Source: Escherichia coli
Lineage (GTDB): Bacteria > Pseudomonadota > Gammaproteobacteria > Enterobacterales > Enterobacteriaceae
Length of the DNA: 64,000 bases
Strand: one strand, 5' to 3'
Assembly (NCBI RefSeq): GCF_050920415.1
Contig: NZ_CP169309.1
Below are positions 19,824 through 57,424 of this stretch, one piece after another (the stretch's first letter is position 1; each line of letters opens with the position of its first letter). The notes under the pieces were generated by a model. It was not told where the DNA came from and did no database searches. It was given only the letters and a program-made list of their open reading frames with translations. The position numbers and the translations under genes were made by a program.

Positions 19824-20135
19824 ATGCACATCATTTCTAAAGCGCCATTTGAAGAGTCTGCGCGTAAATATCCTAACGACGCTCTGGCTCTACACTCATT
19901 GTATCGGGTTATTAAGGAAACGGATTTTTCTACGCCAGAAGAAATGCGAACGGCGTTTCCCAACCTCGACAATTTTAAATATCGCAATAAATGGTACGTT
20001 CTGGATGTAGGCGGGAACAATCTTAGGGTTATTGCCTACATAAACTTTGTTAATAAGCGGTTCTTTGTGAAGCACATAACGAATCATGCCGAGTATGACA
20101 AACTGACACGTTACTACAGAGAGAACAAAGAATGA
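19824..20135 (+). CDS. HigB-family type II toxin (RelE/ParE-superfamily mRNA interferase), accessory gene
   Basis: 103-aa ORF; FPNLDNFKY...VGGNNLRVIAY...HITNHAEYD pattern resembles HigB as I recall it; AAGGAAG Shine-Dalgarno; toxin-first order; 4-bp ATGA overlap with the downstream antitoxin. Confidence 0.75.
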   Translation: MHIISKAPFEESARKYPNDALALHSLYRVIKETDFSTPEEMRTAFPNLDNFKYRNKWYVLDVGGNNLRVIAYINFVNKRFFVKHITNHAEYDKLTRYYRENKE

Positions 20136-20551
20136 CTGCTAATGCTGCACGCGCTGTTAAAGCAACAAGAGAACTGGTCAATGCAGTCCCCTTTCTGGGA
20201 GGCAGTGACTCAGAAGATGATTATCGTGAAGCACTGGAACTGGTCGAATATTTGATTGAAGAAGATGACACCAATCCACTTATCGACTTTCTGGCGAGCC
20301 GTATTGCAGAATATGAAAACAACCACGAAAAGTTTGCAGAGTTCGATAAAGCCGTTGCAGCAATGCCGATTGGCGTGGCGTTACTTCGCACGCTGATTGA
20401 TCAACATAATCTGACCTATGCGGATTTGAAGAACGAAATCGGCTCTAAATCCCTGGTCAGTCAGATTTTGTCTGGACAAAGATCCCTGACGATATCCCAC
20501 ATTAAGGCACTTTCAGCCCGATTTGGCGTTAAGCCGGAATGGTTTCTTTGA
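20132..20551 (+). CDS. HigA-family antitoxin with C-terminal XRE-type helix-turn-helix
   Basis: 139-aa ORF; C-terminal SKSLVSQILSGQRSLTISHIKALSARFGV HTH; start overlaps toxin stop. Confidence 0.75.
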   Translation: MTANAARAVKATRELVNAVPFLGGSDSEDDYREALELVEYLIEEDDTNPLIDFLASRIAEYENNHEKFAEFDKAVAAMPIGVALLRTLIDQHNLTYADLKNEIGSKSLVSQILSGQRSLTISHIKALSARFGVKPEWFL

Positions 20552-44716: not shown

Positions 44717-44809
44717 GGTGAGGTGGCCGAGAGGCTGAAGGCGCTCCCCTGCTAAGGGAGTATGCGGTCAAAAGCTGCATCCGGGGTTCGAATCCCCGCC
44801 TCACCGCCA
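44717..44809 (+). tRNA. serV: tRNA-Ser (anticodon GCU)
   Basis: 93-nt cloverleaf GGTGAGGTGGCCGAG...CGCCTCACCGCCA, long variable arm, anticodon loop CTGCTAA, encoded CCA. Confidence 0.95.
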
Positions 44810-44812
44810 TTT

Positions 44813-44889
44813 GCATCCGTAGCTCAGCTGGATAGAGTACTCGGCTACGAACCGAGCGGTCGGAGGTTCGAATCCTCCCGGATGCACCA
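44813..44889 (+). tRNA. argV: tRNA-Arg (anticodon ACG)
   Basis: 77 nt GCATCCGTAGCTCAGCTGGATAGAGTACTCGGCTACGAACCGAGCGGTCGGAGGTTCGAATCCTCCCGGATGCACCA. Confidence 0.95.
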
Positions 44890-45088
44890 TATTCTACGAA
44901 ATCTTCAGCGATGAAGGTGTCGAAGAGGTGGCGGTACTAACTGCAAGCACCAGGGAGGATAACGTTGCTTTAGCAACGGCCCGAAGGGCGAGCCGTAAGG
45001 CGAGTAATCCTCCCGGATGCACCATCTCTTACTTGATACGGCTTTAGTAGCGGTATCAAAAAATCTGCAGTAAAGTAAGTTTCCCGAT

Positions 45089-45165
45089 GCATCCGTAGCT
45101 CAGCTGGATAGAGTACTCGGCTACGAACCGAGCGGTCGGAGGTTCGAATCCTCCCGGATGCACCA
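45089..45165 (+). tRNA. argY: tRNA-Arg (anticodon ACG)
   Basis: Identical 77-nt sequence to the first copy. Confidence 0.95.
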
Positions 45166-45362
45166 TATTCTACGAAATCTTCAGCGATGAAGGTGTCGAA
45201 GAGGTGGCGGTACTAACCGCAAGCACCAGGGAGGATAACGTTGCTTTAGCAACGGCCCGAAGGGCGAGCCGTAAGGCGAGTAATCCTCCCGGATGCACCA
45301 TCTCTTACTTGATACGGCTTTAGTAGCGATATCGATATCAGCAGTAAAATAAATTTCCCGAT

Positions 45363-45439
45363 GCATCCGTAGCTCAGCTGGATAGAGTACTCGGCTACGA
45401 ACCGAGCGGTCGGAGGTTCGAATCCTCCCGGATGCACCA
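45363..45439 (+). tRNA. argZ: tRNA-Arg (anticodon ACG)
   Basis: Identical 77-nt sequence. Confidence 0.95.
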
Positions 45440-45637
45440 TATTCTCCGAAATCTTCAGCAATGAAGATATCGAAGAGGTAGCGGAATTAACCGCAGGCAC
45501 CAGGAGGGATAACGTTGCGCCAGCAACGGCCCGAAGGGCGAGCCGCAAGGCGAGTAATCCTCCCGGATGCACCATCTCTTACTTGATATGGCTTTAGTAG
45601 CGGTATCAATATCAGCAGTAAAGTAAGTTCTCCCGAT

Positions 45638-45714
45638 GCATCCGTAGCTCAGCTGGATAGAGTACTCGGCTACGAACCGAGCGGTCGGAGGTTCGAATCC
45701 TCCCGGATGCACCA
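45638..45714 (+). tRNA. argQ: tRNA-Arg (anticodon ACG)
   Basis: Identical 77-nt sequence. Confidence 0.95.
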
Positions 45715-47031: not shown

Positions 47032-48615
<1,584 letters not shown>

Positions 48616-48623
48616 CAGAAAAG

Positions 48624-48696
48624 AAAAAGGCCACTCGTGAGTGGCCAAAATTTCATCTCTGAATTCAGGGATGATGATAACAAATGCGCGTCTTTC
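48624..48696 (-). ncRNA. micA: MicA (SraD) small RNA, sigmaE-dependent, Hfq-binding
   Basis: Minus-strand sequence GAAAGACGCGCATTTGTTATCATCATCCCTGAATTCAGAGATGAAATTTTGGCCACTCACGAGTGGCCTTTTT matches MicA as I recall it, including the terminal hairpin plus U-tract. Confidence 0.9.
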
Positions 48697-48702
48697 ATAT
48701 AC

Positions 48703-48731
48703 TCAGACTCGCCAGGGAAGAAAGAGTTCAG
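48703..48731 (-). promoter_or_regulatory. sigmaE-type promoter of micA (-35 TGAACTC, -10 TCTGA)
   Basis: Minus-strand CTGAACTC...GTCTGAG just upstream of the MicA 5' end. Confidence 0.7.
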
Positions 48732-48764
48732 AAAATTTTTAAAAAAATTACCGGAGGTGGCTAA

Positions 48765-49280
48765 ATGCCGTTGTTAGATAGCTTCACAGTCGATCATACC
48801 CGGATGGAAGCGCCTGCAGTTCGGGTGGCGAAAACAATGAACACCCCGCATGGCGACGCAATCACCGTGTTCGATCTGCGCTTCTGCGTGCCGAACAAAG
48901 AAGTGATGCCAGAAAGAGGGATCCATACCCTGGAGCACCTGTTTGCTGGTTTTATGCGTAACCATCTGAACGGTAATGGCGTTGAGATTATCGATATCTC
49001 GCCAATGGGCTGCCGCACCGGTTTTTATATGAGTCTGATTGGTACGCCAGATGAGCAGCGTGTTGCTGATGCCTGGAAAGCGGCAATGGAAGACGTGCTG
49101 AAAGTGCAGGATCAGAATCAGATCCCGGAACTGAACGTCTACCAGTGTGGTACTTATCAGATGCATTCGTTGCAGGAAGCGCAGGATATTGCGCGTAATA
49201 TCCTGGAACGTGACGTACGCATCAACAGCAACGAAGAGTTGGCGCTGCCGAAAGAAAAGTTGCAGGAATTGCACATCTAG
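48765..49280 (+). CDS. luxS: S-ribosylhomocysteine lyase (AI-2 synthase)
   Basis: 171-aa ORF; HxxEH metal motif (HTLEHL). Confidence 0.97.
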
Positions 49281-49324: not shown

Positions 49325-50437
49325 TTACCTGTCAGTCACCCGATATTCCACGCTATGTGCTTCATCAGGTTGAGGAACTTCCAGCCTTGAGGCCATCCGC
49401 ATCACGACCGCTTCAGGAACGGCATACTCGCGCCTGGCATTTTGCTGCTTCCATTGCGCCCACGGTACTTCCAGATAAACGATTTTTACTCGTGCACCGT
49501 AAGCCGTAAACAGACTGATGAGCTGGCTACGCAACTGGCGGGTAATGTTCGTTGCATTCCAGATGAACGGCTTCTTCTGGCGTAAAAAAACGCGCGCTTC
49601 TTCTTTTGCCTGTTGCACAATACGCCCGGTGGCGGTTTTGTCGTCCGGACTGGCATTGATTCGCCGCCGCATATCATCAAGGCTGATAACGTTCACTCTC
49701 TGGCACTGTTCACTGATAAAGCGATCTTTGCCCATACCCGGTAAACCACACAGCAAAATAACCTCAAAAGATTCAGCCTCCCAGGGAACAAAATCAGGAG
49801 AACTTTGTTCATGGGTCAGGTAATGCCAGCGTGCGGAATCCGAAGCGAATGAACGCACTTTTCCCCAGCATTGTTGCTCCTGGCAAAATAGCTCGAACAG
49901 ATCGATGCGTTCCAGCATTGATTGCTGATCATGACAATGGCGACCAAGCAGATCGGCACGAGCAAGCAAAGCGAGCAGACGCGTGTCGATACGCATTGCA
50001 GCCGTGAGCAGCAAACGCTCCGGTTCCGGACGTTCCAGTAACCATAGCGGTAACCCATGCAGACGCACCAGTGCAACAATTTGCTCGCGTAGCACGAACG
50101 GCGTCGGGATATCGCGCCATAAAATTTGTCGGGCCGTCAATTCACCCCGACGAGCATGACCAGGAGACTGAATACGTCCGTTTTCCTGCACGGTAGTACT
50201 GCGCTTTTCAACGTCATGCAATAACGCCGCCGCCCATAAAATTTCCTGCTGCTGAGCGGGGAGTTGCTGAAACTCAGCCATCGCAACGAGTGCGTTCAGC
50301 ACCATTTCAGTATGCACACCAACGTCGCCTTCACCATGATGCTCCGGGTCTTGCGGCGTGTTATGCATATCCTCAACCCAGCTAAAACGCTGGCGTAGCG
50401 TCGACCAGCGTTTGTCGTCGGTAAGTTGCCAAATCAT
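49325..50437 (-). CDS. HD-domain phosphohydrolase fused to P-loop polynucleotide-kinase-like domain; putative RNA end-healing enzyme, accessory gene
   Basis: 370-aa ORF; HD motif (H..., LLHDVEK around residues 33-80); Walker A GLPGMGKD (res 231-238) and Walker-B-like VISLDD; ATGA start/stop overlap with the upstream ligase gene. Confidence 0.7.
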
Positions 50438-51141
50438 GACTGTTCTCCATAAGCGAACTCATGGGCCATCCGCGCCCGTCGCCAGTGGCGTTTCCAGTGC
50501 TCGGTGGTTTTGACATGATTTTTGCGTACATACTTGAAGACGTTATGCGAAAAGTCAGCGACGGAAAACGCATCACTATTCCGGCTGACAATGCCTTCCA
50601 GCGTACAGGGTTGCCCGGTTTGCGTATCCCAGGGATCGAACGCGCCGCGCGCATTGGTCAGCGCCAGAAAATCACGTTGCCAGCTTTTTTCATCATTCCC
50701 CGGCTGCGGGCCGGAGATTTCGGGAACGCAGGGGAAATCAAACAGAGCGGCGTAAAACTGCACCTCTTCCCAGCTCAGCCACATATCCTGGCAGCGAACG
50801 GCAAACAGATAAAAATCCTGCTCCAGGGCGCGATATTCAATCGAATGAACGGCATAAAGATTTTCACCAAACAACTCCAGATCGCCGAGATCGTTTTTCA
50901 GCAGTTGCCAGCGTTGGCGAATTTTATAGGTCCATGCCGATTGTGTAGGCGCGGCATGGGAACGGGCAAACACGCCGTAGCGGTTAAGGCAGTTATTTTC
51001 ACCGTCGAGTTTTTCTGTGTGCACCAATTGCGTGATGGCCTGTAAATCCTGCCAGTAATCGGTGTTAATACGGTCATCGCTGGTGGTGCCAGGGGAGAAA
51101 GGATAATGCCAGGTTCTCCCGTATTTACGTTGGGTATTCAT
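50434..51141 (-). CDS. ATP-dependent RNA-ligase-family protein (covalent nucleotidyltransferase), accessory gene
   Basis: 235-aa ORF; motif I KLDGEN (Lys44), motif III-like FGENLYAV, motif IV EGIVSR, motif V FKYVRK. Confidence 0.7.
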
Positions 51142-54250: not shown

Positions 54251-54781
54251 TTAGCTCATCGCTTCGAGAACCACACCGTCTTGTTCCATCTGGTCGAGAC
54301 GGGAGAGCAATTTGCGGGTGATTTGCTCGAGTTGATCTTTTTCTGTTGTGCTGAGCGCGGACCAGAGTTGATGCAGGCAGTTATGCTGCGGTGGTAAAAC
54401 CTCGCGCAAAAACTCGTGACCTTTTTCCGTTAATTGCAGATGCAGGCAGCGGCGATCGTTATCGCTTTCACGACGTTCGATCCAACCGCGTTTTTCCAGT
54501 TCATCGGCAATACGCGTCGCGTTGGTACGGGATGATCCAAGAGCACAACTCAATTCAGAAGGCTGAATACTGTGGTTTTCCTGAGACTCCAGCGTAATCA
54601 ACGCCATAAACAACGTCTCGTTAATCCCCTGAGCCTTCAGCATTTTATTGCGGTTCTCCAGCAGCTTGCTTTGCATGTGCATGCAAAGACGAGTCAGAAG
54701 GATCTCCTGATAAGGAAAATCTTCGTGGCGGCTGGCGCGAAATTTTAGCATTTGTTCAATGGGCGTAAACGAACTATCCAT
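54251..54781 (-). CDS. mprA: MarR-family transcriptional repressor of emrAB
   Basis: 176-aa ORF with winged-helix MarR core. Confidence 0.95.
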
Positions 54782-57343: not shown

Positions 57344-57424
57344 GTAGACATGATAAGACGCGCCAGCGTCGCATCAGGCATTGTGTACAGAGCGGCGGAT
57401 GAGGCAAAAACGCCTTATCCGCCC
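57344..57424. repeat. REP-type palindromic elements (pair) between ygaY and proX
   Basis: GTAGACATGATAAGACGCGCCAGCGTCGCATCAGGCA and GCGGATGAGGCAAAAACGCCTTATCCGCCC. Confidence 0.7.

Follow-up and report, generated by a model that had tools for sequence, protein, structure and literature searches.

The minus strand of the gshA-luxS spacer in an Escherichia coli chromosome segment carries the micA small RNA gene

Which element occupies the spacer between gshA and luxS on the strand opposite to both genes, how might it be transcribed, and which messages could it act on? We examined this question in a 64-kb stretch of DNA, called the window here and always meaning the whole stretch analysed, which represents an ordinary E. 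coli chromosome segment (mutS-hyp-hyc-asc-nor-srl-recA-alaS-csrA-tRNAs-yqaBA-gshA-luxS-emrBAR-proVWX-nrdEF). MicA has been known since 2001, with ompA as a target since 2005, sigma-E dependence since 2006-2007 and an antisense relation to luxS since 2010. The original prediction, made from the letters of the DNA alone, had recognized MicA (SraD) on the minus strand of this spacer, ending in a hairpin with a U-tract, preceded by sigmaE-like promoter elements and lying antisense to the luxS 5' region. Its coordinates, hairpin and promoter all proved right. The locus was already known, and the finding is correct but ordinary, with nothing new.

Identity, structure and promoter of the minus-strand RNA

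Pfam matches identified the flanking genes as gshA and luxS (Table 1), which RefSeq annotates likewise in the closest genomes, and placed the element in the spacer that had been named. In K-12 MG1655, the ncRNA gene micA (b4442) lies between luxS and gshA on the strand opposite to both, and the same location was found in the window. Alignment to MicA in an sRNA database, proposed with the original prediction as a check, was carried out with Rfam 15 over the whole window. It revealed a full-length match to RF00078 (MicA) from 48696 to 48625 on the minus strand, covering model positions 1-75 of 75 without truncation and scoring 83.9 bits against a gathering score of 41 (E = 1.4e-11). The covariance model is strand-specific, and it was the minus strand that matched. 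From the G at 48696 onward this strand reads GAAAGACGCGCATTTGTTATCATCATCCCTGAATTCAGAGATGAAATTTTGGCCACTCACGAGTGGCCTTTTTCTTTT, and the RNA is base-for-base equal to annotated K-12 micA. The K-12 annotation comprises 73 nt, corresponding to 48696..48624 and thus one more U than the Rfam match; position 48624, from which the original prediction had started the feature, agrees with the end of this annotation. A permissive Rfam rescan of 48300-49000 (E <= 1) returned no other RNA family of note, and an isrD match on the MicA terminator was dismissed as chance level, having reached 17.5 bits against a gathering score of 37.

In the predicted fold the 5' end stays unpaired; a stem-loop of 5+3 bp (nt 23-44) comes next, and then a G+C-rich hairpin of 7 bp that runs into U's. 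The fold has an energy of -21.2 kcal/mol (z = -3.05 vs shuffles). In this model, the first stem-loop would partly cover the seed in the free MicA RNA. The second stem-loop is the terminator: its hairpin GGCCACTCACGAGTGGCC forms seven pairs, five of them G-C, and runs into TTTTTCTTTT, giving the U-tail. According to the terminator scan, this minus-strand hairpin is the sole terminator-like site in 48300-49100, and it is the terminal hairpin with U-tract that had been pointed out.

Table 1. Coordinates of micA, its promoter and the neighbouring genes in the window.
Feature	Position	Strand	Basis or remark
MicA sRNA gene	48625..48696	minus	72 nt by Rfam match; start is the G at 48696
5' seed, MicA nt 7-24 (CGCGCAUUUGUUAUCAUC)	48673..48690	minus	unpaired in predicted fold
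Stem-loop 1, MicA nt 23-44	48653..48674	minus	MFE fold and Rfam consensus structure
A/U-rich linker AAUUUU between stem-loops	48647..48652	minus	sequence present; published Hfq-protected site
Rho-independent terminator	48620..48646	minus	hairpin GGCCACTCACGAGTGGCC (48646-48629), then T-run; terminator scan
Sigma-E type -35 element TGAACTC	48724..48730	minus	spacing and position match published promoter (PMC1851643)
Sigma-E type -10 element TCTGA	48703..48707	minus	pentamer same as in K-12 rpoH upstream site
UP-element-like A/T-rich tract TTTTTTTAAAAATTTTC	48731..48750	minus	upstream of -35; read from sequence
T instead of K-12 A in promoter spacer	48714	minus	position -18; sole difference in 181 aligned bases
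Long luxS 5' leader, published P1 start (G at -332, inside gshA) to AUG	48433..48764	plus	antisense across all micA
gshA	47059-48615	plus	Pfam Glu_cys_ligase 9.4e-170
luxS	48765-49280	plus	Pfam LuxS 1.2e-59

Upstream of the RNA, the minus strand displays the layout TGAACTC, 16 nt, TCTGA, 6 nt and the G of +1 at 48696. Sigma-E promoters have the consensus GGAACTT at the -35 and a TCNNA-like -10. The composite motif GAACT-N17-TCTGA occurred once in the 64-kb window, compared to 0.06 occurrences expected from dinucleotide shuffles, so that the sigmaE-like -35 and -10 reported upstream of MicA correspond to a site that is unique in the window. For a positive control, we applied this motif to the 6 kb around K-12 rpoH, where it hit exactly one site, GAACTTGTGGATAAAATCACGGTCTGA, upstream of rpoH. 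Judging by its position and sequence, this site is probably P3, the sigma-E promoter. The study by Udekwu and Wagner reported that the micA promoter shares 85% (-35) and 100% (-10) identity with P3. In their analysis, the two elements are separated by 16 bp, the discriminator measures 6 bp, the AA of the -35 (also essential) and the C of the -10 do not vary, and a conserved AT-rich stretch precedes the -35 (PMC1851643). All of these features were seen in the window, at the published spacing and with both elements and the invariant bases in place. Relaxing the motif to GAACT-N17-TCNRA yielded one extra site at 54476-54502, which is within chance (0.77 expected) and was discarded. Sigma-E dependence in vivo has been demonstrated for the K-12 micA promoter, which differs from that of the window in one spacer base (PMC1851643; PMC4618604); by analogy, micA would probably be sigma-E-dependent in this strain as well.

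K-12 MicA (SraD, psrA10, b4442) and the RNA of the window are identical in sequence, with the same start, end, -35 and -10 elements, spacing and neighbours. Across the gshA-luxS spacer 1 of 149 nt differs from K-12, against 48 of 1557 in gshA and 14 of 516 in luxS; the single spacer change is the T of 48714, where K-12 has A on the minus strand. Strain MFDS1022581 was 100% identical to the window over the two stretches compared, 601 nt and 2101 nt long, and micA together with its promoter was present in 5423 of 5426 complete E. coli genomes. Because the covariance model, the identity to K-12, the conserved synteny and the conserved promoter agree, we identify 48696..48625 of the minus strand as the micA gene of the E. 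coli chromosome, encoding the ~72-nt and probably Hfq-dependent sRNA MicA (SraD), with a probability of about 0.97. No feature of the sequence argues against micA.

Under the match to the micA query (window 48620-48741), the listed RefSeq (PGAP) records had no feature, and only the curated K-12 record NC_000913.3 was seen annotating micA. In every non-K-12 record listed, micA is a feature left blank by RefSeq/PGAP.

Conservation across Enterobacterales and alternative readings of the locus

Homologues were collected from genome contigs by an exact 19-mer from the MicA seed, which returned at least 120 loci; owing to this selection, some of the conservation in the 5' part is built in. Among the matches listed, 109 loci carry the MicA 5' 26-mer, and all of these belong to Enterobacterales. 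Eleven listed matches without the 26-mer were excluded as chance; most belong to unrelated taxa, Ruminococcus, Mucilaginibacter and Lokiarchaeota among them, and have no similarity outside the 19-mer. For the listed Enterobacterales loci whose DNA reaches the neighbours, luxS was divergent upstream in 106 of 106 and gshA convergent downstream in 103 of 103. We aligned the 102 distinct sequences from these loci. The bases A-32, A-31, C-30, T-11, C-10 and A-7 were invariant in all 102, and the promoter columns were free of gaps; therefore, the 16/6 spacing is fixed.

The promoter spacer, in comparison, averages 62% identity. As the sole difference from K-12 in the micA locus, the T-for-A change at -18 could in principle cause micA to be transcribed differently here, either more weakly or independently of sigma-E. 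We consider this very unlikely, given that -18 sits outside both promoter elements, that the spacer length is unaltered and that this column is among the most variable in the 102 sequences, with a top base frequency of 0.33.

The RNA fold is conserved along with the promoter. Across the 102 sequences, stem cells were paired in 95.7% of cases, compared to 31-59% for partners slid by 1-3 columns. Seven of the eight pairs of stem-loop 1 were kept in 85-100% of the sequences and the outermost one (nt 23-44) in 57%, while the innermost pair changed in a compensatory manner from G-C to A-U in 7 of the 102. The six outer stem pairs of the terminator did not vary at all; the seventh occurs as A-U, U-A or G-C, again compensatory, and is U-A in the window. 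Covariation is sparse, affecting 2 of 15 pairs, because the MicA RNA hardly varies. MicA of Salmonella, Citrobacter, Enterobacter, Yersinia, Serratia, Pantoea and other genera shares the seed, the two stem-loops, the core of the sigma-E promoter and the synteny, whereas the loop sequences of both hairpins differ from those of the window. Most genera have A-U as the seventh pair of the terminator, as opposed to U-A in the window and in Escherichia, Citrobacter and Salmonella-like sequences. In some genera, the target-binding region of MicA contains an extra ATC unit, with ATCATCATCATC in place of ATCATCATC (for example L041:2159-2288, L095:3357-3486, L096:924-1053 and L110:10609-10738); variation of this ATC repeat is also mentioned in a 2015 MicA review (PMC4618604).

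Could the conserved block be explained by its neighbours, as a gshA terminator joined to the luxS 5' leader and promoter region, with no independent RNA gene in between? The hairpin lies 14 nt past the gshA stop codon and might act on transcripts of gshA too, those of luxS do cross the region (PMC2956633), and the plus strand carries a weak sigma-70-like match at 48674-48703. The hairpin with its T-run was, however, reported by the terminator scan on the minus strand only, the plus-strand stem being followed by AAAATTTC. In addition, the sigma-E motif with its invariant core and fixed spacing is placed on the minus strand exactly upstream of the conserved block, and the strand-specific Rfam model likewise selects the minus strand. 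For the identical K-12 sequence, published work already documents a minus-strand transcript of ~72 nt that starts at the position equal to 48696. We regard the absence of an RNA gene as extremely improbable. The two roles are not exclusive, since the overlap with the luxS leader is real.

The RNA might also be thought to serve as the mRNA of a small protein, since a minus-strand open reading frame (48698..48552, 48 aa, MKDAHLLSSS...) has an ATG that overlaps the transcription start and stays open for 48 codons in the window. The mapped +1, however, is the G of this ATG, and the start codon is thus absent from the transcript. Among the homologues the start codon varies between ATG, GTG, CTG and TTG, the frame meets a stop within 10-27 codons in 46 of 102, and the length, measured from +1 to where the terminator stem ends, is spread over all three frame classes (43, 40 and 19 of 102). 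Moreover, the 48-aa frame continues past the terminator and on into sequence antisense to gshA. With the start codon split by +1 and neither frame nor stops conserved, we rejected the small protein, which has practically no chance of being real.

Pairing with ompA and antisense overlap with luxS

Having assigned the RNA, we analysed the complementarity of its 5' end to ompA. RNAduplex, applied to the 24-nt 5' end, paired MicA nt 7-24 with K-12 ompA -22..-5 in 4+12 bp, leaving one A bulged, at -21.7 kcal/mol. In the energy control, 15 of 2000 shuffles did as well, a moderate significance only, which is expected of a seed so short and A/U-rich. This unstructured 5' region contains the 4+12 nt interaction known since 2005, which compensatory mutations confirmed (PMC4618604). 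The pairing was computed against K-12 ompA, the gene of this strain lying outside the window; in E. coli the ompA leader is at least 99% identical to K-12 in 5387 of the 5425 matching records (5425 of 5426 genomes). Using full-length MicA against the ompA leader gave a loop-ridden duplex of -44.5 kcal/mol that 41 of 1000 shuffles equalled, and this uninformative RNAduplex result was set aside.

Published work on the identical RNA offers a framework for how MicA may act in this strain. Hfq binds at the AAUUUU linker, where a footprint was reported, and at the U-tail; lamB, ompX, phoPQ and others are further targets; and RNase III, RNase E and PNPase take part in MicA-related decay (PMC4618604). 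The MicA of the window has the AAUUUU linker (48652-48647) as well as the U-tail, and judging from the K-12 and Salmonella experiments, Hfq binding at these two sites, repression of the further targets and decay through the three nucleases would be expected here too. In the proposed mechanism, the 5' end (nt ~7-24) would pair with the ribosome-binding regions of ompA and other envelope-related mRNAs, and this pairing should block translation and promote mRNA decay, thereby lowering outer-membrane protein synthesis under envelope stress. Other sigma-E-driven, Hfq-dependent sRNAs follow the same logic, using their 5' end to repress mRNAs of outer-membrane proteins or lipoproteins (PMC4618604), but their sequences, loci and target sets are unrelated to MicA, and neither of them gave an Rfam match here. 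VrrA from Vibrio cholerae is sigma-E-dependent too and represses ompA translation by pairing at the 5' region (PMC2628432); being ~140 nt long, not homologous to MicA and not strictly requiring Hfq, it is a functional analogue rather than a family member.

The second relation of MicA concerns the adjacent gene. The MicA +1 precedes the luxS AUG by 69 nt, and the two genes diverge. A luxS start of sigmaS type (P1) was mapped by Udekwu 2010 at -332 from the AUG (PMC2956633), and in the window this start falls on G48433. The stretch 48390-48440, which covers promoter region and start, matches K-12 in all of its 51 bases. The published P1 promoter region (…TCTATGATTGATACTG; 48390-48433, plus strand) lies inside the 3' end of gshA, with several substitutions in the gshA codons just downstream. 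From this arrangement, a P1 transcript would span all of micA, with the geometry for a perfect duplex present. Transcripts starting inside gshA would read through micA, so that MicA would act as a cis-encoded antisense RNA matching the long leader perfectly, and RNase III could cut the duplex formed. Long luxS mRNAs were found to be converted to a shorter species in a MicA- and RNase III-dependent manner (PMC2956633), and similar processing may occur in this strain. The original prediction that MicA, being antisense to the luxS 5' region, could affect luxS is correct but had been published (Udekwu 2010, PMC2956633). The same study observed no detectable change in LuxS protein, and the 2015 MicA review calls the luxS effect unclear (PMC4618604).

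We also considered the sigma-70-like site on the plus strand as a proximal luxS promoter. It is weak, with ~0.8 such sites expected by chance, and its position misfits the published proximal luxS 5' end, which overlaps MicA by 14-15 nt at ~48682-48683 (PMC2956633); this candidate was rejected.

A further-reaching proposal is that sigma-E-driven MicA reshapes the luxS transcript pool under envelope stress enough to alter LuxS or AI-2 output. We consider this unlikely. The coupling has already been published as a hypothesis, and the one reported test at the protein level was negative. If true, it would couple envelope stress to quorum sensing and to activated-methyl-cycle metabolism, and would amount to a resolved function, not a new element. 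On the practical side, a Salmonella biofilm study suggests that deletions or insertions in the luxS upstream region can disturb micA (PMC2987988).

Further features of the window

Downstream of luxS, the window differs from K-12 by a 2.1-kb two-gene insert that begins ~40 bp past the luxS stop and leaves micA untouched. The two genes lie between luxS and emrB at 49325-51141 on the minus strand and are absent from K-12. The product of one is a 370-aa protein that has a kinase-like AAA_33 domain and, at its N-terminus, a weak HD match below the Pfam cut-off; the second gene overlaps the first by 4 nt, and its 235-aa product is an RNA_ligase (PF09414) protein. The two resemble an RNA-repair pair that combines end-healing and sealing. 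The insert was detected in 999 of 5426 complete E. coli genomes, being at least 99% identical to the window allele in 3 and 90-95% identical in 970.

Between hycI and ascB (~19824-20551, plus strand), the annotation of the closest genome places a HigB-family toxin gene and a helix-turn-helix, antitoxin-like gene. Rfam also matched naRNA4 (CssrE, nucleoid-associated RNA) at 57347-57424 on the minus strand with 63.5 bits against a gathering score of 59.5; this match lies in the interval that separates proX from an MFS transporter gene. The tRNA array at 44717-45711 on the plus strand is composed of one tRNA-Ser followed by four identical tRNA-Arg genes, with an even spacing of ~275 nt between the Arg genes, whereas in the K-12 array one of the intervals, that from argY to argZ, is shorter at 139 nt.
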